A DNA stretch of 54,661 nucleotides from Lysobacteraceae bacterium (GTDB lineage: Bacteria; Pseudomonadota; Gammaproteobacteria; Xanthomonadales; Xanthomonadaceae). The stretch lies in NCBI GenBank assembly GCA_033765245.1, contig JANRIF010000249.1, forward strand, positions 1 to 54,661, given 5' to 3'. A program made the position numbers and the translations under genes. Under the pieces are notes generated by a model. That model worked only from the letters and a program-made list of their open reading frames with translations, was not told where the DNA came from and searched no databases. This document shows positions 5,803-54,661 of the stretch, one piece after another (the stretch's first letter is position 1; each line of letters starts with the position of its first letter).

Positions 5803-6466
5803 GTCCATTCTCCAGGTGTGCGAGCATCGCCTGTGCGGCATTTTGTTCCGCCTGGCGTCGCGATTGCCCAACACCGGTGGCTTCGAACCCGATATCGGAC
5901 ACGCTGCAGCGCACTTCGAACTCCTTGGCGTGGTCCTCGCCGCGGGTATCCACCAGCAGATAGGCGGGCAGCGCCCGCGAGCGCCCCTGCAACCATTCCT
6001 GCAGGCGCGTCTTGGGATCCTTTTGCACCTTGCCGACCGGCAGCGCCGCAATTTCCGGCTCCAACCAACCCAGCACCACCTCACGGCAGCGCTCGAAGCC
6101 GGCGTCGGCGTATATCGCCGCCACCACGGCTTCGAAAGCGTCGGCGAGGATCGAATCGCGACGATGACCGCCGCTCTTCATCTCGCCAGGGCCAAACGTC
6201 ATCTTCTCGCCCAGACCGAGACCGCGCGCCAGACGCGCCAGGGTGGACTCGCGCACCAACTCGGCGCGCGCGCGCGTCAGTGCGCCTTCGTCGGCGCGCT
6301 GCCAGCGCGAATACAGCGCCTCGGCGGCGATGAAGTTGAGCATGGCATCACCGAGGAACTCCTGACGTTCGTTGTTGCGGGCACCGACGCTGCGATGGGT
6401 CAGCGCCTGCGCCAGCAGGCGGGAGTCGGCGAACCGATATCCGCCGATCGCATCACTCACCGGCAC
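5795..6466 (-). CDS. rnc: Ribonuclease III
   Basis: RNase III signature [10 protein letters not shown] plus a C-terminal dsRNA-binding domain. 223 aa. Confidence 0.95.
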
Positions 6467-6824
6467 CCCGGTTGAGCGTTTCGCTGTGGTCGAAGCTGAC
6501 CACCAGATCGATGTTGGACACGAACGGTTTGCGGACTTCGTAGCGGATGTTGATGCTGGGGTTACGGTCGCGCGAAATGCGGATGTCGTTGGGGCGTACC
6601 GAATCGACGTAGCTGATGTCGAAGTGACGCAGCAGCATGACGCGGATGTCGCCGGGCTGCTTGTTGGCCACCCCGACTTCGCCGGCCACCGCCTTCATGG
6701 CTTTGACCACGCTGAAGTACTCGGTATAGACCGGTACCAGACGCATCGCCGCATAGGCGAAGAAGCCGACCACCACCAACACCATCAGAAAGCCGATGAA
6801 TGTGATGCCACGTTGCATCTTCAT
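6453..6824 (-). CDS. DUF4845-like small membrane-anchored protein
   Basis: 123 aa with an N-terminal TM helix ([21 protein letters not shown]), then [10 protein letters not shown]. It occupies the lepB-rnc slot where DUF4845 genes occur in pseudomonads and xanthomonads. Confidence 0.7.
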
Positions 6825-6919
6825 GGTTGTTCACTCCGTCTGCAAACCCCGCCGGGACGTACCGTACGGACCCCATCGCGCCACTGCGACTGACAGGGAC
6901 CGGGCCGCGCAGCGCTACT

Positions 6920-7732
6920 CTACTCGACCACGGTGCCGATGCGCGAGAACACCGGGCCACCGTCCCAGCTCATCCAGATTGCGAACGCGCGTCCCACCAG
7001 ATTACCCTCCGGCACGAAACCCCAGAAGCGGCCGTCGTCGCTGTTGTCGCGGTTGTCGCCCATCACGAAATAGTGCCCGGCCGGCACGTCGAAGGCGCCG
7101 TCGCCGCGCGATATGTTGTCGCGATGCAGAACGCGGTGCTTGTGAGTGCCGAGGGTTTCGTCGAGCAGGCGCGCGCCGGTGCTGTCGCGGCCGCTGCGCT
7201 CGCCGATGTAAAGCCCATCCTGAACCTGCGCGATGGCCTCGCCGTTGACGAATATCTGCTTACCGCGGTATTCGATGCGATCGCCCGGCAGCCCGACCAC
7301 GCGCTTGATGAAATCGTCGCCCTTCATGGGATCGGTGGGACCGCGACCGGGAAAGCGGAACACCACCACGTCGCCACGCTTGGGCTCGCCGATTTCCATC
7401 ACCTTCGAGTTGAGCACCGGCAGGCGCAACCCGTAGGCGAATTTGTTGACCAGGATGAAGTCGCCGATCAGCAGGGTCGGCATCATCGAGCTGGAGGGAA
7501 TGCGGAACGGCTCGCCCAGGAACGAGCGCACCAGCAACACCGCGAAGATCACCGGAAAGAACGAGCGCGCGTATTCGACCACCAGCGGAACCGGCACTTC
7601 GTTGCCGGTCGCCGGCACCGGCTCCGGCGCGCGCGCCTTGCGCGCCTTGGCGAAGAACAGCGCATCGATCAGCCAGATCAGGCCGGTAACGGCGGATAGC
7701 ACCGTCAGAACCAAGGCAAAGTCAATCTTCAC
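6920..7732 (-). CDS. lepB: Signal peptidase I
   Basis: S26 boxes SSSMMPTL, GDFILVNKF and GDNRDNSDDGRFWGFV. GTG start with GAGGAAG upstream. Confidence 0.95.
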   Translation of the reverse strand: MKIDFALVLTVLSAVTGLIWLIDALFFAKARKARAPEPVPATGNEVPVPLVVEYARSFFPVIFAVLLVRSFLGEPFRIPSSSMMPTLLIGDFILVNKFAYGLRLPVLNSKVMEIGEPKRGDVVVFRFPGRGPTDPMKGDDFIKRVVGLPGDRIEYRGKQIFVNGEAIAQVQDGLYIGERSGRDSTGARLLDETLGTHKHRVLHRDNISRGDGAFDVPAGHYFVMGDNRDNSDDGRFWGFVPEGNLVGRAFAIWMSWDGGPVFSRIGTVVE

Positions 7733-9556: not shown

Positions 9557-9648
9557 GGGCTCGGCCGGCGCGAACGGCCGTCTGGTGGTGAACCGCGAAT
9601 TATCGCACAAGCGGGGGTGGGGGCTCGATGGGGCCGGGAACGGGGCTT

Positions 9649-9822
9649 GATGAAGCCGGGACTCGGGACTGGGGACTGGGGACTCGGAAAAGCCAAGGCA
9701 AATGCTCAAAGCGAAAGTTCGCAAGCTTGTAGTCCCGAGTCCCGAGTCCCGAGTCCCGAGTCCCGAGTCCCGAGTCCCGAGTCCCGAGTCCCGAGCCCCG
9801 AGTCCCGAGCCCCGAGTCCCGC
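9649..9822. repeat. Heptad-hairpin REP-like element (4 left heptads, 13 right heptads)
   Basis: Left arm gatgaagccGGGACTCGGGACTGGGGACTGGGGACTCGG (9649-9687). Spacer ending gttcgcaagcttGTAG. Right arm has 9 perfect GTCCCGA units plus 4 variants (9732-9822), ending 3 nt before the degP stop. Confidence 0.85.
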
Positions 9823-9824
9823 CC

Positions 9825-11249
9825 TCAATCCCCCTTACGCGGCGTCACCGCCACGAACTGAGTTTGCTCGCCGCGCCGGACCAGCAGCATCGCGGTGTCG
9901 CCGACCTTGACATCTTTGACGGCCTCGGTGAACTCCTTGGCGCTGGCCACCGCGGTGCGGCCGACGCGGAGAATCACGTCGCCGGCGCGCAACCCGGCGC
10001 GCTGCGCGGCTTCGCCGCTGATGCGCGATACCAGCACACCCTCGTTGGCGCCCAGACCCAACTGCTCGCGCTCGTCCGCGCTCGGGGTCTTCACCACCAG
10101 CCCCAGTGGGCCGGAGCTGCCGTTGGCGCTGGATGAACTGTTGCCGGTTGCGGCAGTGTCGTCACTCGGCACCTCGCCCAGCACCGCAGCGACGTCGCGC
10201 GTCTTGCCGTCGCGCAGCACGCGCAGGTTCACCTTGGCACCGGGCGCGGTATTGCCCACCAGTGGCGGCAGATCGGACGATTGCAGGATTTCGGTGCCAT
10301 TGAGCGCAAGGATCACGTCGCCGACCTTGATGCCCGCCTTGTCGGCGGCGCTGTCCGGCGTGACCGAGCTGACCAGAGCGCCGACGCTGCGATCCAGGCC
10401 GAGGTTCTTGGCGAACTCGCGATCGACATTCTGGATCGCCACGCCCAACTGGCCGCGGCTGACGTGACCACTCGCGCGCAACTGCCGCGCCGAGTTCATC
10501 GCCACCTCGATCGGAATGGCGAAGCTCACGCCCATGTAGCCGCCCGAATTCGAGAAAATCTGCGAGTTGATGCCGACCACTTCGCCCTTCGTGTTGAGCA
10601 GCGGACCGCCGGAATTGCCGCGGTTGATCGCAACGTCGGTCTGGATGAACGGGGTGTACTGCTGCGAGGCGTCGAGGCTGCGCCGACCCACGCCGCTGAC
10701 CACACCGACCGTGACGGTGTTGTCCAGAAACCCGAACGGCGAGCCGATCGCGAACACCCATTCGCCCGGCCGCAGCGCCTTGGATGCTCCGGGCTTGAGT
10801 GAGGGCAGCCCCTTGGCATCGATCCGCAACAGTGCGATGTCCGCCTGCGGATCGCTGCCGATCACCTTGGCGACGAATTCGCGCCGGTCCGGCGTGCGCA
10901 CGATCACCTGGTCGGCGCCCTCGATGACGTGATGGTTGGTCAGCACCTCGCCGTCGGTGGAAATGATGAAGCCCGAGCCCGACGCGACGCGATCGCGCGG
11001 CTCCATTGGCGGCATGCCCGGCTGGCCGAAGAAGCGCCGGAAGAACTCCGGCATTTCCTGGGGATCCACTTCCTCGTCGTCGCCGCTGGCCGCGGCGGAA
11101 CCGGCAGTGTGGGTCGCTTCGATGTTGACGACGGCAGGACTCGCCTTTTCCGCCAGTTCGGTGAAATCGGGAAGGGTGGTCTGTGCGATGAGTGAGCCCG
11201 ACCCCAACATCAGGCCAAGCATCAGCGCGAATCGAGAGGCGTGGTTCAT
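9825..11249 (-). CDS. mucD: Periplasmic serine endoprotease DegP/MucD family
   Basis: Signal peptide, trypsin-like domain with GNSGGPLLN, and two PDZ-like repeats. It follows rpoE-rseABC as in algU-mucABCD. Confidence 0.9.
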
Positions 11250-16089: not shown

Positions 16090-16339
16090 CTGCCTTGCCG
16101 CGACGCCCTAGCAGAGGCATGGGTTCGCAAAGGACGCCAACCACGCAAAGGGCGCAAAGGGAAGTGGCGCGGCGTCGTAGGCTGGGGTGAGCATCGCGAA
16201 CCCCAGCGTTTCCGGGCTCATCGTGTCGGCCCGAATCTGGCGATGTTACTGATGCCGCCGTCGCGTGCGTCGCGAGGTGCAAGAGCTGGCGCTCATCGCG
16301 GCGCCAGCGCTGCGGCTCGCAGGCTCGGGCGGTATCTTG

Positions 16340-16375
16340 GTAGGCCGGTTCAAGCCGCGTAGCGGCGGAACCGAC
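16340..16375. repeat. GTAG-type REP unit (same family as 483-578)
   Basis: gtaggccggttcaagccgcgtagcggcggaaccgac. A second REP type (gtaggctggggtgagcatcgcgaaccccagc) lies near 16178-16208. Confidence 0.6.
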
Positions 16376-16571
16376 GTGCGGAGAGATTCGAAGCCGTGCG
16401 AAATCCGCGGTGCGCGTGGTGTCGGATCCACTGCGTGAGAAATGCAAGTTCGCCCCAGAACAGGGTTGAGATGCCCTCAAGCGGCAGAACCGCAAGGCCC
16501 ATGGATTCTTCGTAAAAACGTAGCTCTTGCTCGGGATCGGATTGCACAAGCCATGGCGCGCCGCCCGCCTG

Positions 16572-17057: not shown

Positions 17058-17165
17058 TTGTGGGAGGCCGCTTGCGGGCGACAGGTGCTCGGCCAGAGCG
17101 TGGCTGCCGTCGCGCGCAAGCGCGCTCCCCCTGAGTTCGCAAGCTAGTAGCCCCGAGTCCCGCTC
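17058..17165. repeat. REP cluster (GTGGGAG-type unit plus a degenerate heptad-element tail)
   Basis: 17058-17089 ttgtgggaggccgcttgcgggcgacaggtgct is identical to 31560-31591. It is followed by gcgcgcaagcgcgctccc and gttcgcaagctaGTAGccccgagtcccgc, which resembles the spacer and right arm of the heptad elements. Confidence 0.6.
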
Positions 17166-23857: not shown

Positions 23858-24076
23858 GGTGCGTCTCATACCGTCATGACGCCCGGTGACACCTCCCCGG
23901 GCAACACCGAAGCCCAGCGCTGTCCTGAGCAGGTCGATTCAGGCGCCAACGGCGCGAACCCACATGGCATGCGCCATCCCGACGCCTCACCGTTGCGTAC
24001 CTTGCCGGTTCCGCCACTACGTGGCCTGAGTCCACCTCCAGCGCTGACGGAAGCGCCATCGGTCCTGCATGCCGCT

Positions 24077-33544: not shown

Positions 33545-33780
33545 GATGAAGCCGGGACTTGCGACTCGATGAAGCCGGGACTGGGGACTCGGGACTGGGG
33601 ACTCGGAAAAGCCGGAGCAAAAGGCCAAGGCGAGAGTTCGCAAGCTTGTAGTCCCGAGTCCCGAGTCCCGAGTCCCGAGTCCCGAGTCCCGAGTCCCGAG
33701 TCCCGAGTCCCGAGTCCCGAGTCCCGAGTCCCGAGTCCCGAGTCCCCAGTCCCCAGTCCCGGCTTCATGAGTCCCGAACA
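33545..33780. repeat. Heptad-hairpin REP-like element (4 left heptads, 16 right heptads)
   Basis: Partial left copy at 33545-33567, then ATGAAGCCGGGACTGGGGACTCGGGACTGGGGACTCGG. Spacer ends gttcgcaagcttGTAG. Then 13 perfect GTCCCGA (33651-33741), 2 GTCCCCA, and GTCCCGG-CTTCAT (to 33768), which closes the inverted repeat. Confidence 0.9.
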
Positions 33781-45027: not shown

Positions 45028-45207
45028 AGCCTGGACTCGGGACTCGGAACGGCCAAGGCGCCGGTAGGCTGGCGGTGAGCGCAGCGAACCCCAGCGCCGT
45101 TGCACCACCTGTGGGCGTGCTGGGGTTCGCTGCGCTCACCGCCAGCCGACATCAGAAGCACAAGCTCAAAGCAGAAGCTCGCAAGCTCGTCGTCCCGCGT
45201 CCCCGAG
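45026..45207. repeat. Degenerate heptad-hairpin element carrying a nested 29-bp perfect inverted repeat
   Basis: gaagcctGGACTCGGGACTCGG...ccaaggc on the left. ctcgcaagctcgtcGTCCCGCGTCCCCGAG on the right. Inside, 45067-45095 ggctggcggtgagcgcagcgaaccccagc is the exact reverse complement of 45119-45147. Confidence 0.8.
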
Positions 45208-48636: not shown

Positions 48637-48779
48637 AGGGGACTCGGTGAGGTCGGGATTCGGGACGCGATGAAGCCGGGACTCGGGACTGGGGACTGGG
48701 GACTCGGAAAAGCCAAGGCGAGAGATCAGAGCGAAAGTTCGCAAGCTTGCAGTCCCGAGTCCCGAGTCCCGAGTCCCAA
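48637..48779. repeat. Heptad-hairpin REP-like element, short allele (4 left heptads, 3-4 right heptads)
   Basis: gatgaagccGGGACTCGGGACTGGGGACTGGGGACTCGG (from 48669). The spacer is nearly identical to that at 9688-9731. Then GTCCCGA x3 plus GTCCCAA (48752-48779). Confidence 0.85.
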
Positions 48780-48823
48780 CCCTCGCATTGACCACACACC
48801 GCCCCACGCGGCACACTTGCGCC

Positions 48824-49084
48824 ATGCCTCCCGCCGTCAAATCCGATCCTTCCGCCAGCCCAGTCGCCGACTTCGAGCGCTCGCTCGATGAACTGGAACA
48901 GATCGTGCAGCGCATGGAGACCGGCGAGCTGAGCCTGGACGACTCGCTCAGTGCCTACGAACGCGGCGTGTCGTTGTACCGGCAATGCCGTGGCGCACTC
49001 GATCAAGCCGAACTGCGAGTGAAACTGCTGTCCGATCCGCTCGATCCGGACAGTGCGCAGGACTTCGCCGCGGATGCACCCTGA
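48824..49084 (+). CDS. xseB: Exodeoxyribonuclease VII small subunit
   Basis: Start ATG 48824 (MPPAVKSD...). [26 protein letters not shown] is the XseB core. Confidence 0.9.
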
Positions 49085-49183: not shown

Positions 49184-50062
49184 ATGCTGAGCGCCGCGCA
49201 ATTTCCGCGCTGGCAAGGCCGCATCGAATCGATGCTGGAACGCCTGCTGCCACCACCCGACAGCACGCCGGCGCGCCTGCACACCGCCATGCGCCACGCA
49301 GTACTCGGCGGCGGCAAGCGCCTGCGACCGATGCTGGTGTATGCCGCCGGCGCGCTCGTTCACGCCGATGCCGCCACCCTGGATCACGCCGCCGCCGCAG
49401 TGGAACTCATCCACGCCTACTCGCTGGTGCACGACGACCTGCCGGCGATGGACGACGACGCCCTGCGGCGCGGCCGCCCGACCGTACACGTGGCGTTCGA
49501 CGAAGCCACCGCCATCCTTGCCGGCGACGCACTGCAGACGTTGGCGTTCGCCGCACTGAGCGATGCACCGGCCCCGGCCGAAGTGCGGCTGGCGTTGCTG
49601 CAAACACTGACTGCCGCCAGCGGCTCACAAGGCATGTGCGGCGGCCAGGCGCTCGACCTCGCCGCCACCGGCCAGCGCCAGACCCTGACCGACCTCGAAG
49701 CCATGCACCGCGCCAAGACCGGCGCACTGATCCGCGCCAGCGTGCGCATGGGTGCCCAGGCCGGCAACGCCGACGCCACGATGCTGGCGTCGCTCGACGA
49801 CTACGCCACCGCCCTTGGCCTCGCCTTCCAGATCCGCGACGACCTGCTCGACATCGAAGGCGACGCCGCACAACTGGGCAAGACCGCCGGCAAAGACGTC
49901 GCCCAAGACAAATCGACCTTCCCCGCCCTGCTCGGCATCGAAGCCTCCTACGCCCGCCTCGACGACCTCACCACCCACATGTGCGACGCGCTCGCAAACA
50001 TCCCCGGCGACACCCTGCCGCTACAGCAACTCGGCGAATTCGCCGCGCGGCGCAGACACTGA
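49184..50062 (+). CDS. ispA: Farnesyl-diphosphate synthase (geranyltranstransferase)
   Basis: First and second Asp-rich motifs LVHDDLPAMDDD and FQIRDDLLD. Conserved xseB-ispA pairing. Confidence 0.95.
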   Translation: MLSAAQFPRWQGRIESMLERLLPPPDSTPARLHTAMRHAVLGGGKRLRPMLVYAAGALVHADAATLDHAAAAVELIHAYSLVHDDLPAMDDDALRRGRPTVHVAFDEATAILAGDALQTLAFAALSDAPAPAEVRLALLQTLTAASGSQGMCGGQALDLAATGQRQTLTDLEAMHRAKTGALIRASVRMGAQAGNADATMLASLDDYATALGLAFQIRDDLLDIEGDAAQLGKTAGKDVAQDKSTFPALLGIEASYARLDDLTTHMCDALANIPGDTLPLQQLGEFAARRRH

Positions 50063-50490
50063 ACTGCTGGCGCGCTCGCACTACCAACCGCCCGGCCAAC
50101 AGCGCCCGCACCGCGTTCCTGCTCAATACCGTTGGAGGCAGCTCAGGGCTCTTGGCTCGCCGGGTGGTTTCCATCCACGGCAACCCGCGGCGCCCTTCGT
50201 GCTCGGAACCCGCATTTGCGCCCATTGCAAGCCGAATCCGGGATGATTACGCTGCCTCCGACGGTGTTACGGTACGATGCCATCAATCGCCTAGTCCCGC
50301 ACCAAAGAACGTTGCGAGGATAGGATGCGAAGATGGGCTGCAACGCAGGGATAACGCGATGATTCGTGCAGGAATTTTCTTGCAATTCACTGCCCCAATA
50401 CCGTGATTGGCTGCGGGTATATCTGGCGATTCGTCGTCGACTAGGTGTAGGCGTCAAGCACCCCACTGCTCCATACCTCGGATGCTCCTC

Positions 50491-50916
50491 ATGAAAACAC
50501 TAATCGCACTTCGCGGCGCGGGGAACCGCGGCAAGAGTAGAACTCTGTGCATGCTCATAGAACTCATCAAGGTGGCCTATCCAAGTGCCAAGTTCGAGGA
50601 GAAGCGGTACAAGATTGACATCACTGTTGTGATCACCGTTGGCACGATCAAAGTTGGGGTCGAGACGCAAGGCGACCCGAACAGTCGGCTGGAACGAAGC
50701 CTAAATACGTTCGTCGACATTGGTTGCAAGGTAATTGTTTGCGCTTCCCGTTCATCTGGCAGAACCGTTGAAATTGTCAACGAGGCTGGGAGTCGAGGAT
50801 ACAGGGTCAAGTGGGTCGAGAAGGCGTCCGTGCAAGAGTCAGCGATGCAATGCGCCGCGAACAGGGCTTCCGCAGGCGAACTGCTCACATTGGTCCAGGC
50901 CGCAATTGACGCCTAA
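50491..50916 (+). CDS. Small P-loop NTPase-like protein (141 aa), family unknown
   Basis: MKTLIALRGAGNRGKSRTL contains a Walker A motif GxxxxGKS (GAGNRGKS). No unambiguous Walker B. ATG 50482 is an alternative start. No clear SD sequence. Confidence 0.6.
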   Translation: MKTLIALRGAGNRGKSRTLCMLIELIKVAYPSAKFEEKRYKIDITVVITVGTIKVGVETQGDPNSRLERSLNTFVDIGCKVIVCASRSSGRTVEIVNEAGSRGYRVKWVEKASVQESAMQCAANRASAGELLTLVQAAIDA

Positions 50917-50929
50917 CGTTAGGGCTTAC

Positions 50930-51637
50930 ATGAGAAATCCGTCGAAGTGGAGTCCGCTCGACTACCTCAAGCGTCAGATGGACAGACGATATGTCGGGAT
51001 ACGAATTGATCCCTTTCCTCAAAAGCCACTTCAAGAGAACCAGCTACAACAGGCGGACGTATTATTCTGCCGCGGAGGGAAACGGAAAATTACTTGGCAA
51101 CTCATTTCATACGGTTCATCAGGCCCTTATGTCCATGTCGCAATTTACCTCAGCGACGGAGAAGTGGCTGAGTCAACAACGAGAGGAGTCAAGCTGTGCA
51201 AATTGAGTGAGCTAATCGAGCGATACGAGTACGTCGCGGTTACGAGGTGCCCAGGCGTTCACGGCATCCCCAACTTGCGATCGAATGTGATTGATTTTTG
51301 CAAGTATCACATTAGCTGCGGAACGCCATACGACCACGTTGGCGCTGCGCTCTCACCTCTATACGAGTTCATCGAGCTGGCATTTCAACGGTCCAGACCC
51401 CGCCGCATAACTTTTAATTGGCAAAGAAGAACTCATCGTCGCACGTTCTGTTCGCAGTTTGTCTTGGACGCATTTGTAGCGGGCGGTTATATTCCAGCAA
51501 CATATTACGCAATGGGTGCTCGGTCACCGACCGCTCTAGCGGAGGAGAAGTGCTTCGGCCTTATTGGCTACTTGAGCAAAGCCCGGAGACTTGGGCCGAA
51601 TCTTCGCGGTGATGTTTTCTGGAACGGAGGCGGGTGA
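50930..51637 (+). CDS. Permuted papain-like / NlpC-P60 superfamily amidase (C92 YaeF/YiiX-like), 235 aa
   Basis: ADVLFCRG...SSGPYVHVAIYLSDGEVAESTTRGV (His block) precedes GTPYDH and RRTFCSQFVLDAF (Cys block). This is the His-before-Cys circular permutation of the YiiX family. Start ATG 50930 within ORF 50735..51637. Confidence 0.6.
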   Translation: MRNPSKWSPLDYLKRQMDRRYVGIRIDPFPQKPLQENQLQQADVLFCRGGKRKITWQLISYGSSGPYVHVAIYLSDGEVAESTTRGVKLCKLSELIERYEYVAVTRCPGVHGIPNLRSNVIDFCKYHISCGTPYDHVGAALSPLYEFIELAFQRSRPRRITFNWQRRTHRRTFCSQFVLDAFVAGGYIPATYYAMGARSPTALAEEKCFGLIGYLSKARRLGPNLRGDVFWNGGG

Positions 51638-51646
51638 GCCACGACA

Positions 51647-51688
51647 AATTAATCCAAAGCGAAGCCGCTTCGCGACCTGGTATTAATT
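51647..51688. repeat. Two-tier imperfect palindrome between the amidase gene and the next ORF
   Basis: The outer AATTAATCC pairs with GGtATTAATT (one bulged T). The inner GCGAAG/CTTCGC stem has a 3-nt loop. No AAC/GTT boxes and no T-tract. Confidence 0.5.
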
Positions 51689-51748
51689 AATACGCTGCGG
51701 CTCTCTATTCATCACGCATCCTTTGCGCATCGATCATCCTGGTGAAAT

Positions 51749-52114
51749 ATGAAACTGAGTGACTTCATCAATGAAACCCTCGTCGAAATTGCAACGGGGA
51801 TAACTCGCGCGAATGAGTCGCTAAGGGGCACTGGCGCCTTAGTGAATCCTCCGAATATTTATGTCGAACCGAATGATCGCTCCAAGATTTTCGGCGTCTG
51901 GAACAGGAAGGCTCTTGAGATGCACCCGGTTGTAGAATTAATAGAATTCGATGTTGCGCTATCTGTGACAGAGAGTCGTGAAACAAATGCAAAGTCTGGT
52001 GTGTCGCTATCCGTCCTCGAACTAGGAGCTGGCGGCAAATCACTGGGCAGTCGTGGCTCTGAATCAAGGGTGAGGTTCCGTGTACCGTTCATCTTTCCAA
52101 GAGCCGAGCCCTAA
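51749..52114 (+). CDS. Small beta-rich protein, trypco2-like by pattern (121 aa)
   Basis: The N-terminal helix LSDFINETLVEIATGITRA, then ELIEFDVALSVTESRETNAKSGVSLSVLELGAGGKSLGSRGSESRVRFRVPF, resembles from memory the small trypsin-co-occurring domain 2 proteins of conflict systems. Unverified. Confidence 0.5.
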   Translation: MKLSDFINETLVEIATGITRANESLRGTGALVNPPNIYVEPNDRSKIFGVWNRKALEMHPVVELIEFDVALSVTESRETNAKSGVSLSVLELGAGGKSLGSRGSESRVRFRVPFIFPRAEP

Positions 52115-52173
52115 CCCGGCAGTCGAGCGCACCTGCGCGAAAAGCCGCGCAGGCCCTCACTTTTAAGTTAGTC
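52109..52173 (+). repeat. attC-like recombination-site candidate 1 (65 nt)
   Basis: CCCTAAC(R'', contains the TAA stop)-ccggc-AGTcGAGcgca-CCTGCGCG-aaaagc-CGCGCAGG-ccCTCACT-tttaa-GTTAGTC(R'). AGT/ACT and GAG/CTC pair around a bulged C. The 5-nt spacers are unpaired. Confidence 0.5.
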
Positions 52174-52193
52174 CCCACAGGGAAGATCATCGA

Positions 52194-52508
52194 ATGTCAG
52201 AACTTTTGAAACGCTCCATTGAAGCTCTTAGCGCTTCGGTTAATGTTGCAACCGGCCTCACTCACCCCCTGGATGAGTCTCGTGCAAAAGAGCTTTTCAA
52301 GGCATTGCATGCTTACGGCGAGGTGCTTACATACGATCAGGTTGAGGAGCTTGCCTTGGCCAATCGGTGGCCCGAGCGCCATGCTACGGATCTCGCAGAG
52401 CTTGCCGAGCGCATTGGTAATGGAGGGCGTGTGGTTATAAAACACGCACGGAAATGGGGTGAGCCAACCGTTGCTCGCCTCAAAGCGGAGATTGAGGCTG
52501 GCGCCTAA
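52194..52508 (+). CDS. Small all-helical hypothetical protein (104 aa)
   Basis: AGGGAAGA lies 9 nt upstream of ATG 52194. The composition is protein-like. The antisense 236-aa ORF (52197..52907) looks random. The stop lies inside a GCCTAAC heptamer. Confidence 0.55.
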   Translation: MSELLKRSIEALSASVNVATGLTHPLDESRAKELFKALHAYGEVLTYDQVEELALANRWPERHATDLAELAERIGNGGRVVIKHARKWGEPTVARLKAEIEAGA

Positions 52509-52945
52509 CAAACAAGGCCACCATTTCACCGCCCGAGTCAATCGGCACGAGTGTATCCGTCGCGGCCAGAGCCGCAATGATCGCAGCTCGTGATGAAGTG
52601 GAGGGGCCGCGACGGCATTCACGCTCGGCGCAGAGTCTTGGCCGCGCCAGTCATCCTTCTGGATCAAGGCGCGTGTCGCGCCCCTGGCTTTCTCCCCAAA
52701 CACTGACCGAGCAAGCGCAGGGAGTGAAGGCGTAGCCGCGTAACAGCCGAACGGTGCAATCGTTGCGTCCCGGTGACCTGACGGTGGCACGGAATCATGG
52801 CTCGAATTTGCACTCGTCCGCCCCTCGTTGGCTCGCACGACGGGCAGCCCCTGAACAACAGGAAACAGTTCACGATTAATTTGTGCCACTCTACTTGATC
52901 GTGGCATATCTTCTACTGTTCTTGTTCCCTACCAGTAGTGACCTC

Positions 52946-53012
52946 GTCCAACCAATCATTCCACCAGACCTGCGCAAAAATCCGCGCAGGCCGGTAAATT
53001 CAAACGTCAGGC
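52946..53012 (+). repeat. attC-like recombination-site candidate 2 (67 nt)
   Basis: GTCCAAC(R'', perfect RYYYAAC)-caatc-ATTCCACCAG-a-CCTGCGC-aaaaatcc-GCGCAGG-CCGGTAAAT-tcaaac-GTCAGGC(R', one mismatch to GTTRRRY). The central stem is the same sequence as in candidate 1. Confidence 0.5.
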
Positions 53013-53016
53013 GCCA

Positions 53017-53271
53017 TCAATAATGATATCGCAGTTGAGCGATAAGCACTGAATCATCGGCCGCCTTATAGACGATTCTATGTTGCTCGTCGATACGCCG
53101 CGACCAATACCCTGCCAACGCATGCTTGAGCGGCTCTGGCTTCCCTGTGCCCGTGTGCGGTGTCCGGGTGATCTCTTTGATCAGCTCGTTGATGCGCTGC
53201 ACTAATTTCTTGTCGGTCTTCTGCCAGTACAGATAGTCTTCCCACGCTTGCTCGGAAAAGACCAATCTCAC
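53017..53271 (-). CDS. yoeB: YoeB/Txe-family toxin (mRNA interferase)
   Basis: 84 aa, collinear with E. coli YoeB: SEQAWEDYLYWQKTDKKLVQRINELIKE, GKPEPLKH, WSRRI, C-terminal RYHY. Confidence 0.95.
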   Translation of the reverse strand: MRLVFSEQAWEDYLYWQKTDKKLVQRINELIKEITRTPHTGTGKPEPLKHALAGYWSRRIDEQHRIVYKAADDSVLIAQLRYHY

Positions 53272-53519
53272 TTGGTCAAGCTCCGCACTTTGCCCTTCCC
53301 GGACTCAAGTGCAGCAATGCTTTCAAGCAGCCGCTGCGCGTTCTTGGGGCTGCGTAGCAGGTAGGAGGTTTCCTCCAGCGCCTTGAAATCGTCTAGCGAC
53401 ATCATTACAACCGCCTGCTGGCCGCTGCGGGTGATGATGATAGGCTCATGATCCTCGCAAACACGGTTCATGGTGTCGGCCAACTTGGCTCGGGCAGTGC
53501 TGTAGGTGATCGCGTCCAC
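53268..53519 (-). CDS. yefM: YefM/Phd-family antitoxin
   Basis: 83 aa, collinear with E. coli YefM: EDHEPIIITR, MSLDDFKALEETSYLLRSPKNAQRLLESI. GTG start with AAAGGAGG 5 nt upstream. 4-nt overlap with yoeB. Confidence 0.93.
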   Translation of the reverse strand: MDAITYSTARAKLADTMNRVCEDHEPIIITRSGQQAVVMMSLDDFKALEETSYLLRSPKNAQRLLESIAALESGKGKVRSLTK

Positions 53520-53532
53520 GGGCGCCTCCTTT

Positions 53533-53550
53533 TGTACAACTATTTGTACA
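53533..53550 (-). promoter_or_regulatory. YefM-YoeB operator-like pair of TGTACA cores
   Basis: TGTACA at 53533-53538 and 53545-53550, 12 bp centre-to-centre, immediately upstream of the yefM SD. Same core and spacing as the E. coli yefM-yoeB operator. Confidence 0.7.
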
Positions 53551-53597
53551 ATGTCGACCCGGCAGTGTCAAGCGGCGGCACCTGACGGACAGGGCGG

Positions 53598-53619
53598 GAT
53601 CGTGCGCAGCTACGATCTG
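53598..53619. repeat. 22-nt hairpin motif shared with 54448-54469
   Basis: gatcgtgcgcagctacgatctg versus gatcgtgcgcagccacgatctg (21 of 22 identical). GATCGT/ACGATC stem. Confidence 0.7.
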
Positions 53620-53866
53620 CAAAGCCCCAAAGCCCAGCCCCACCCTTCCGAACTTTCCTACACAACAACGCGCCACTTGCCGACAGACACGCGGCGGTGC
53701 GGGCGTCACGCTGTGTCCATGACGTATCCACGCAACCCACTTGCTCCACCCGGATCGCCGGCTGTGCGCTGCGCGCAAGCGGCAGCCGTCGACGCCATCG
53801 ATCAGCGCCACTGCGTCTGTTGGGCATCGCCTTGCGTTGGTCATACCACGGTGATACTGTCGCCCC

Positions 53867-54103
53867 ATGAAAGTCGCCATCTCGTTGCCAGATACAGTGT
53901 TCGATGCGGCGGAGATGCTGGCGCAGGAGCTGAGCATGTCTCGTAGTCAGCTCTATGCCCAGGCGTTGTCTGAGTTCTTGCAGGCTCGAAGTGCTTCGGC
54001 TGTCACTGCAAAGCTCAACGAGGTCTATGGCCGGGAAGATGCGGCTGTTGCCCCCGCGTTGATGCGTGCGCAGGTGGGAGCGCTGACTCATGAGGCGTGG
54101 TGA
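53867..54103 (+). CDS. Ribbon-helix-helix (CopG/MazE-like) antitoxin
   Basis: MKVAISLPDTVFDAAEMLAQELSMSRSQLYAQALSEFL is a typical RHH N-terminus. 78 aa. It overlaps the downstream MazF gene by 14 nt. Confidence 0.8.
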   Translation: MKVAISLPDTVFDAAEMLAQELSMSRSQLYAQALSEFLQARSASAVTAKLNEVYGREDAAVAPALMRAQVGALTHEAW

Positions 54104-54428
54104 CGTTTGGTGGGCATCGCTGGATGAACCCGTGGGCTCAGGCCCAGGTCTGCGCCGACCTGTTCTAGTCGTGCAATCGAACCCCTTCAACTTGAGCCGG
54201 ATTTCTACCGTTGTCGTATTGGTCATCTCTTCCAACCTCGCGTTGGCGGAGGCGCCTGGGAACGTGCGGCTGAGCAAGAGCGATTCCGGGCTGCCCAAGC
54301 CGTCGGTAGTCAACGTATCGCAGATTCTCACGCTGGATCGAGGGCTGCTGACAGACCGTGTTCGTGCGTTGCCCGGTCGCGTGATGGAGCGCGTCAATTC
54401 GGGCTTGCACTTGGTTTTGGGGCTGTGA
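54090..54428 (+). CDS. mazF: MazF/PemK-family toxin endoribonuclease
   Basis: MRRGDVWWASLDEPVGSGPGLRRPVLVVQSN...PSVVNVSQILTLDR is the characteristic MazF/PemK SH3-like barrel pattern. 112 aa. Confidence 0.88.
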   Translation: MRRGDVWWASLDEPVGSGPGLRRPVLVVQSNPFNLSRISTVVVLVISSNLALAEAPGNVRLSKSDSGLPKPSVVNVSQILTLDRGLLTDRVRALPGRVMERVNSGLHLVLGL

Positions 54429-54429
54429 T

Positions 54430-54484
54430 GCCTAGCGACTGAGGCTAGATCGTGCGCAGCCACGATCTGAGCCGTTTGTTGGAC
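54430..54484 (+). repeat. attC-like recombination-site candidate 3 (55 nt)
   Basis: GCCTAGC-gactga-GGCT-AGATCGTG-cgcagc-CACGATCT-g-AGCC-gttt-GTTGGAC. It starts 2 nt after the mazF stop. R' is a perfect GTTRRRY. A 12-bp composite stem carries one extrahelical G. Confidence 0.5.
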
Positions 54485-54661
54485 GACCCCGCTCTCGGGC
54501 GCGAGCGGTGCGCTCTGAATGGATGTCCTGTTGGCGGATCACGCTGCAATGGAGGCAGCGTGCTACTCGCCGAAGCAGCCGTTTGGTTCGGGCACGGCGT
54601 CGCCCCAGTCGAGAGATACATGACCCTGTGCCACGTGCCGATGAAAGCTCGAATAGGGCCA

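Follow-up and report, generated by a model that had tools for sequence, protein, structure and literature searches.

Probable remains of a sedentary chromosomal integron downstream of ispA in a Lysobacteraceae contig

The window analysed here is the whole of NCBI contig JANRIF010000249.1 from a Lysobacteraceae bacterium (assembly GCA_033765245.1; 54,661 nt), which two Logan contigs extend on the right side by 634 nt. Its last part, an AT-richer island of 4.4 kb at 50063–54484 that follows the core gene ispA, is very probably what is left of a sedentary chromosomal integron after decay in place. Integrons acquire promoterless cassettes through the integrase IntI, which recombines each attC site in the form of its folded bottom strand, and the cassettes stack one-way downstream of intI. 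The array in the window would run rightward on the plus strand from a minus-strand intI relic beside ispA, and would hold five cassettes: a P-loop-like gene of 141 aa; a C92-like gene together with a gene of 121 aa; a DUF1889 gene followed by 437 nt of non-coding DNA; an inverted YefM-YoeB pair; and an antitoxin–MazF pair. An earlier note on this DNA had proposed a cassette array resembling a CALIN (a cluster of attC sites lacking an integrase) with no working integrase nearby, and this proposal is upheld by the model matches of the attC sites E1 and E2, by a homologue of the candidate site E4 and by the occurrence of the first gene as a cassette elsewhere. The elements of the array other than its genes are as follows.

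50097–50186, minus strand: probable intI relic of about 30 codons, GLPWMETTRRAKSPELPPTVLSRNAVRALLA, matching IntI residues ~89–119, flanking parts missing
50446–50452, plus strand: left junction of cassette 1, degenerate, reading TGTAGGC in place of the G/TTAGGC of homologous cassettes
50911–50924, plus strand: attC scar, R'' GCCTAAC abutting R' GTTAGGG, interior absent
52109–52173, top strand on window plus: E1, attC, R'' CCCTAAC, R' GTTAGTC
52946–53012, top strand on window plus: E2, attC, R'' GTCCAAC, R' GTCAGGC
53552–53625, plus strand: E3, degenerate attC remnant, non-folding, without R' box
54430–54484, plus strand: E4, candidate attC of another type, last in the array, R'' GCCTAGC (AAC changed to AGC), R' GTTGGAC canonical

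The three imperfect palindromes on which the earlier note was built are present at the coordinates it gave (E1, E2 and E4), and the first two share a CCTGCGC..GCGCAGG stem and are 77% identical over 43 nt. A metagenome collection was scanned with the 25-nt core common to E1 and E2, ACCTGCGCNNNNNNCCGCGCAGGCC, and at least 120 loci matched. Among the matches listed, about 120 of the 127 core sites lie in one element of ~70 nt with RYYYAAC and GTTRRRY boxes, in the order GYCYAAC box, 5-nt spacer, 10-nt arm, core, complementary 7-nt arm, 5–6-nt spacer and GTTRRRY box. The DNA outside the boxes is unrelated between family loci, the same ~70-nt element trails unrelated genes in more than 100 loci, and this attC type is abundant in the environmental metagenome collection. 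The arms fall into covarying subtypes (ATTCCACC/GGTGAAT, AGTCGAGC/GCTCACT, AGTCAACC/GGTTACT and GCTCAACC/GGTTAGC), E1 having the second of these and E2 the first. In an alignment of 119 family sites the L (inner) helix is 97% paired, with both sides changed in six pairs, and the covariation score is 0.202 (119 sites), compared with 0.104 for shuffled data and 0.04–0.07 with the partners slid. The unpaired bases of the family's bottom strand are on the 3' arm, like those of canonical attC sites.

Two covariance models, R1 from 119 metagenome sites and the broader R2 from 141 array sites, were built with the window excluded from both and were used in place of IntegronFinder's attC model. When the whole window was searched with filters off, R1 matched E2 with 73.2 bits (E 4.5e-20) and E1 with 58.5 bits (E 1.8e-15), and R2 matched E2 with 71.1 bits (E 1.1e-21) and E1 with 62.9 bits (E 7.6e-19); the third-ranking match in the window had an E-value of 0.88 with R1 and 0.14 with R2. 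E1 and E2 are shown by these matches to be attC sites. Both match on the minus (bottom) strand and hence have the same orientation, and since the models describe the bottom strand, the top strand of E1 and E2 is the plus strand of the window, which is the direction of most cassette genes. The attC-model search that the earlier note had recommended thus gave significant matches with models built in this analysis (E 1e-15 to 1e-22), and the bottom-strand folding it had also suggested showed that E1 folds as an attC site does, with an R stem, 4-nt spacers and an L stem whose 3' arm has single unpaired bases (−15.9 kcal/mol). The fold of E2 comprises the L stem and a terminal hairpin; the R stem is absent from the minimum-energy fold yet is aligned by the models.

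E1 conforms fully to the RYYYAAC/GTTRRRY boxes and is the sole site of the window with both core triplets canonical, whereas E2 is off by one base, with the core triplet GTC instead of GTT. The corresponding bottom-strand R' triplet GAC is found in 0 of the 141 reference sites, of which about 131 have AAC as the bottom-strand R' triplet (one-base register slips counted) and 130 have GTT as the R'' triplet. Of the boxes given previously for the three palindromes, two are corrected here: the left box of E4 is GCCTAGC, not of AAC type, and the right box of E2 is GTCAGGC. An upstream stop codon inside or next to the left box had been claimed as well, and is seen at E1, where the TAA stop of the 121-aa open reading frame (ORF) sits in the left box, and at E4, where the MazF TGA stop ends 1 nt ahead of it; E2 instead finishes 4 nt ahead of the opposite-strand YoeB stop.

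The same family links these sites to integrons. R1 gives 299 matches in 407 kb of fetched loci, with one-strand arrays of up to ~15 sites spaced 0.3–1 kb apart in L137, L180, L183, L140, L151 and L201. Integron integrases adjoin such arrays in L111, L140, L179 and L137 (TIGR02249, 458–492 bits, cutoff 265), and further loci hold partial copies of integron integrases. Across a cassette, the outer four positions of the facing boxes match exactly in 46 of 83 neighbour pairs of the reference arrays, compared with 8% of random pairs. Our own box-plus-fold scanner was unspecific, giving six comparable matches in the 50-kb core of the window, and was dropped in favour of the covariance models. In four other loci a conserved AAAAAGGTGTCTACTTAAC is followed by GTT and then by unrelated DNA (L117 ~231, L130 ~4229, L194 ~90 and, on the reverse strand, L134 ~977); in L130 it heads an attC array, with 4.2 kb to the left of the junction. 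This junction looks like one of attI type, and no integrase was detected within these four loci.

Alternatively, the palindromes could be intrinsic terminators or other gene-end hairpins of an acquired island with no integron link, a reading that we regard as barely credible. They do lie at ORF ends and fold better than shuffled sequences (z −2.0 to −2.8), but no site with a stem and a T run coincides with E1, E2 or E4, the RYYYAAC/GTTRRRY boxes and spacers are conserved although a terminator does not need them, and the same ~70-nt element recurs after unrelated genes at its many loci. For E1 and E2 the model scores already refute it.

A gene lying just beyond the array raises another alternative.

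54563–54661, minus strand: 3' end of a REP-associated tyrosine transposase (RAYT) gene, outside the array; the contig ends inside the gene

The full RAYT protein of 161 aa, read from Logan contig L001 (5811–6296), which is identical to the window, matches NCBIfam NF047646 (E 2.1e-44), and its gene, in native high-G+C DNA, reaches within 79 nt right of E4. The palindromes might then be repetitive extragenic palindromic (REP) elements or REPINs (doublets of these) serviced by the adjacent RAYT, that is, ordinary intergenic repeats. Such elements are likewise short, imperfect palindromes at gene ends, and a 20-nt core common to E4 and E3 flanks the MazF pair. The window elements, on the other hand, are not dispersed: none of E1–E4 recurs in the other 50 kb (this contig only), and in particular the E1/E2 core has no recurrence in bases 1–50000, so that the scattering by which the earlier note would have recognised ordinary REPs is not seen in the 54.6-kb contig. 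E1 and E2 are without a GTAG head and belong to a family occurring in arrays beside integron integrases, and the homologue of E4 adjoins a family attC. The repeats that the genome does contain differ in sequence, being GTAGG-headed hairpins (483–580, 16339–16377, 23928–23966 and 45064–45150) and GGGACTC heptamer arrays; the former appear to be the true REPs of this genome, with the RAYT as their likely partner. The REP explanation is already largely refuted and we consider it very unlikely.

Cassette 1 provides evidence of a different kind. Its 141-aa gene has 28 homologues with 53–81% identity, nearly all of 140–145 aa, and in two loci, L204 (a complete chromosome) and L206 (a metagenome array), the stop codon of the homologue is inside the R'' box of an attC. 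The L204 site scores 55.6 bits with R2 (E 2.2e-16), and L206 has five sites by the same model. By this comparison the gene is shown to be a recurrent cassette gene. On the left, an alignment of the junctions (A4) places TGTAGGCGTCAAG of the window against GTTAGGCGTCGAG of L204 and GTTAGGC of L206, each preceding the ATG of the 141-aa gene by ~40–50 nt. On the right, a second alignment (A3) sets GACGCCTAAC, the 58-nt attC interior and GTTAGGT in L204 against GACGCCTAAC followed directly by GTTAGGG in the window, where the boxes abut at 50917/50918. R2 recognises both boxes of this scar by deleting the 53 interior positions of the model (within the island, 7.9 bits and E 0.94). The window has one copy of RYYYAACGTTRRR, while there are 11 copies in 0.50 Mb of integron loci and a single one in 1.39 Mb of control loci; at least two of the 11 integron-locus copies are, by inspection, ordinary attC sites with a spacer beginning GTTGAA. 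The second alignment shows that exactly the interior of the attC behind gene 1 has been lost, so that cassettes 1 and 2 are now fused. This box–box junction and the degenerate E3 had both been overlooked in the earlier note.

The L204 copy lies at 6001–7300 of that locus (GCA_964253535.1, OZ176250.1), where a MarR-like gene and priA flank a two-attC cluster that includes the 141-aa cassette. The cluster, which has no called integrase gene in the 6 kb to its left or right, is another small CALIN and has a cassette in common with the window.

E4 was related to integrons through a single element, located at 335–395 of the metagenome locus L094, with which it is 94% identical over 33 nt. This element reads ACCTAAC-GAATA-AGGTTAGATCGTG-CTTGC-CACGATCTGAACC-GTTT-GTTGGAC with canonical boxes, and a single cassette separates it from a family attC, the relative orientation being that seen in the window. 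Compared with the L094 copy, E4 has one compensatory stem change (T:A to C:G) and the mutated left box GCCTAGC, and its stem-loop has a predicted energy of −10.3 kcal/mol (z −2.3). The alignment shows E4 to be homologous to an element that sits in a cassette context elsewhere; the E4-type pattern had 0 matches in viral contigs. Box complementarity is symmetric on flipping of the array and does not settle the orientation of E4. The L094 contig is 1183 nt long, and because its first ~100 nt recur at its end it can be read as two cassettes in a circle or in tandem; the facing boxes of each are perfectly complementary (GTTAGGT/ACCTAAC and GTTGGAC/GTCCAAC).

E3 lies between the two toxin–antitoxin pairs. 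Its left half, read directly, resembles the E1/E2 family (TGTCGAC CCGGC AGTGTCAAGCGG .. ACCTGAC), and its right half bears the E4-type core GATCGTGCGCAGCTACGATCTG, which is found in the window only in E3 and E4; the two sites form a direct repeat of 27 nt with 89% identity. E3 folds no better than shuffled sequences (z +0.55), and is probably a dead chimera that arose by deletion between two attC sites. Another candidate attC at 53727–53829, ending in GTTGGGC, was rejected because its fold was no better than that of shuffled sequences (z −0.46).

The 430 bp that follow ispA had been described as free of integrase, but the minus strand there holds the intI relic of about 30 codons. A tblastn search of the 55-kb extended window with three metagenomic IntI sequences gave 41–55% identity over 29 aa (E 3e-4, 6e-4 and 0.016), aligning LPWMETTRRAKSPELPPTVLSRNAVRALL on the minus strand at 50097–50183 with the metagenomic IntI sequence LPWLDKLTRAKRPQRLPVVLTRDEVRAVL. 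A hidden Markov model (HMM) of five IntI sequences, run unfiltered on all six-frame fragments of the window and its 634-nt extension, ranked the relic first (E 2.4e-4) and gave the next fragment E 2.4, making the relic the best match by four orders of magnitude in E-value. It scores 29–35 bits against four metagenomic IntI sequences, 20 bits against IntI1 and 17–18 bits against XerC and XerD, the last three sequences having been entered by hand. The relic is also on the side and strand expected of intI for a rightward array. We think it likely, from its similarity and position, that this is a real remnant of intI. With a relic on the left, and with the RAYT gene and native DNA filling the 634 nt on the right, an integrase past the right edge, the other location that had been suggested, is unlikely. 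An IntI-like stretch on the plus strand at 50366–50464 was taken as chance (E 5.6).

An 18-nt inverted repeat overlaps the relic (50125–50142 and 50251–50268; 16 of 18 positions complementary, 108 nt apart), and its arms would each encode LPPTVL, one per strand. The arrangement suggests either an inverted duplication left by destruction of intI or a large hairpin just past ispA.

Neither an intact intI nor an attI with a cassette junction, the marks of a complete integron, was found, and the relic is the only IntI-HMM match in the 54,661 nt and the 634-nt extension. The junctions used as references for attI, of the form xAC/GTTRRRY expected roughly 110–135 nt from the start of intI, come from L179, L111, L140, L137 and L184. 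In 50187–50445, between the relic and the first cassette, the N-terminal 88 codons of IntI are not recognisable.

Several observations weigh against an integron that decayed in place, and some of them favour a true CALIN that never had an integrase of its own, in which an IntI acting in trans inserted the cassettes at a secondary GTT site past ispA and the relic is a chance match. The relic has just ~30 codons and 16.5 bits, an NCBIfam hmmscan of the ORFs in 49968–50494 reported neither it nor anything else, and no attI-like sequence is recognisable in 50187–50445, where the IntI N-terminus is missing too. The relic could be a chance match or a remnant of some other Xer-like recombinase. In Xanthomonas, CALINs in chromosomal positions remote from intI are reported as common, in about half of the genomes (preprint 10.1101/2025.06.18.660453), and L204 carries the same first cassette in its two-attC cluster. 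Set against this are the rank of the relic among all six-frame fragments of 55 kb, its place and strand, exactly those expected of intI, and its roughly twofold higher score against metagenomic IntI than against XerC/XerD. We consider insertion in trans unlikely.

Other points against the fossil integron concern the sites themselves. The R1 and R2 loci were retrieved by the E1/E2 core, and the independent evidence is thus in the boxes, spacers and arms and not in the core. E4 is matched by neither R1 nor R2, only one homologue of it was found (L094), and in the presumed bottom strand the E4 type has its sole bulged base on the 5' arm, the arm opposite to the one seen in canonical attC sites and in the E1/E2 family; the spacers of the E4 type, 4 and 6 nt, likewise look reversed. 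There is a slim chance that the E4 type is an attC class whose strand choice is independent of the usual extrahelical bases, or that its other strand recombines, in which case both known copies would be informative natural substrates. Ahead of E2, 437 nt (52509–52945; G+C 0.59) are without a confident gene. The stop codon of the DUF1889 gene is inside a GCCTAAC box (52503–52509), after which no foldable attC was found, and 52503–52945 may represent an attC since lost, with a decayed or gene-less cassette after it. Where cassette 4 gives way to cassette 5 is not clear-cut either.

We still favour the fossil integron. From the destroyed intI, the left junction with TGT for GTT, the box–box scar, the non-folding chimera, the GTC of E2 and the AGC of E4, we infer that the integron has become inert. 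Its cassettes are probably fixed where they are, unless E1 and E2 can still be used by an IntI from another part of the genome. Toxin–antitoxin cassettes are typical of sedentary integrons, and the two in the window probably aided persistence of the array.

The island differs from its surroundings in composition and gene content, as had been noted by eye. In 1-kb bins past 50000 the G+C content is 0.575, 0.499, 0.571 and 0.583, while all fifty earlier bins are within 0.627–0.714, in agreement with the AT-richer DNA reported past ispA. By segment, G+C is 0.70 in ispA, 0.51–0.61 in the cassettes and 0.64 in the final 177 nt of the window, climbing right after E4, the final site of the array. IspA of the window is 64–66% identical to that of Lysobacterales (nearest species representatives). 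In these nearest relatives (IspA at most 66% identical) there are 0 carriers of any island gene or of the RAYT downstream of ispA, and the downstream G+C is native in all. The synteny comparison proposed earlier hence finds the island absent from relatives at this distance, which helps only to show that it is lineage-specific. The lower G+C compared with ispA and the absence of the island from the nearest relatives support a foreign origin of the cassettes. The genes are short and functionally unrelated and include two toxin–antitoxin pairs, as the earlier note had it, these now being assigned by Pfam to YoeB/YefM and MazF/PemK. The genes of the array, with one hairpin between them, are listed below.

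50491–50916, plus strand: cassette 1 gene, 141 aa, with a GxxxxGKS motif (by eye), no family match
50930–51637, plus strand: cassette 2 gene 1, permuted papain-like Peptidase_C92/YaeF-like, 235 aa (Pfam PF05708, E 1.2e-8)
51646–51695, no strand assigned: AT-rich imperfect hairpin between the cassette 2 genes (−11 to −13 kcal/mol, z −2.0 to −2.6)
51749–52114, plus strand: cassette 2 gene 2, 121 aa, weak Trypco2 match (Pfam PF19631, E 0.0011, 19.6 bits, cutoff 24.2)
52194–52508, plus strand: cassette 3 gene, DUF1889, 104 aa (Pfam PF08986, E 9e-11)
53017–53519, minus strand: cassette 4, YefM-YoeB operon, inverted with respect to the array (Pfam YoeB_toxin E 3.6e-39, PhdYeFM_antitox E 5.6e-25)
53867–54428, plus strand: cassette 5, ORF in antitoxin position plus MazF/PemK (Pfam PemK_toxin E 1.2e-25)

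The 235-aa C92-like protein also matches NCBIfam NF008552 with E 3e-13, under the family cutoff. In cassette 2, the GTTAGGG box at 50918–50924 is the exact complement of the E1 R'' box CCCTAAC, and this complementarity of facing boxes indicates that the C92-like and 121-aa genes form one two-gene cassette ending in E1. The hairpin at 51646–51695 is terminator-like on the minus strand only; it was rejected as an attC because it is without boxes and has no R1 or R2 match, and the complementarity between 50918 and E1 also argues for a single cassette. Cassette 4 and cassette 5 are both adjacent small gene pairs with family matches, as type II toxin–antitoxin systems are, with the exception of the 78-aa ORF of cassette 5 (53867–54103), which overlaps the MazF/PemK gene (54090–54428) and, as the antitoxin candidate, has no family match. 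YefM-YoeB has 35–40% amino acid similarity to a pair between two attC sites in L083, and cassette 5 has weak similarity to an attC-adjacent gene in L113. Just upstream of the inverted yefM-yoeB, at 53529–53551, are two copies of TTTGTACAA, overlapping the left box of E3; they probably serve as the autoregulatory operator of this pair. PADLOC gave 0 matches among all eight cassette proteins. An Rfam scan of the whole window gave no match, with no attC family among its results.

Among known systems, the island is close to CALINs and to sedentary chromosomal integrons. A CALIN is defined by two or more attC sites separated by less than 4 kb and no intI near; E1 and E2 are 837 nt apart, E4 is another 1.4 kb away, no intI passes any family threshold, and IntegronFinder would class the island as a CALIN. 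It is like a CALIN in having attC sites in one orientation and no detectable full intI nearby, and unlike one in the short intI relic at the head of the array and in most of its attC sites being damaged, so that it looks decayed in place, not detached. Truncated intI genes and CALINs have been described at several loci in Xanthomonas (10.1101/2025.06.18.660453), and chromosomal integrons with taxon-conserved attC types in Xanthomonadales genera (PMC8352920). With the sedentary integrons of Xanthomonadales/Lysobacterales (ilvD-linked in Xanthomonas, and those of Lysobacter, Thermomonas and Stenotrophomonas) the island has in common the host clade and an array on the chromosome in which small genes of unknown function are joined by toxin–antitoxin cassettes, but the window array follows ispA and not ilvD, and has five cassettes rather than tens.

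The scar after cassette 1 can be set beside a process in class 1 integrons, where cassettes become fused through loss of most of the attC (59-base element). Likewise in the window an attC between adjacent cassettes has been cut to a stub in which R'' and R' are left; unlike in the class 1 cases, the deletion takes exactly the interior of the hairpin and is documented against an intact orthologous cassette elsewhere. The element is of a known kind, the example is an ordinary one, and the understanding of integrons is unchanged. It nevertheless gives a clear view of integron decay, with an integrase stub by a core gene, damaged attC sites and two intact toxin–antitoxin cassettes, and such examples help in distinguishing clusters left by decay in place from clusters whose cassettes were inserted in trans. 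The collection of ~300 environmental attC sites and integrases can be reused, as can the covariance model.

Two features outside the array were also recorded. On the right, two independent Logan assemblies stop at the same base, ~250 nt beyond the RAYT start, and this shared break point suggests a repeat there. In the rest of the window, the tandem GGGACTC/GGGACTG heptamer elements are intergenic and lie at 9640–9830, 33550–33770 and 48666–48841 and also at 17133 and 45021; they have an inverted partner and a conserved AAGTTCGCAAGCTTGTAG centre, and one of them is directly upstream of xseB-ispA.

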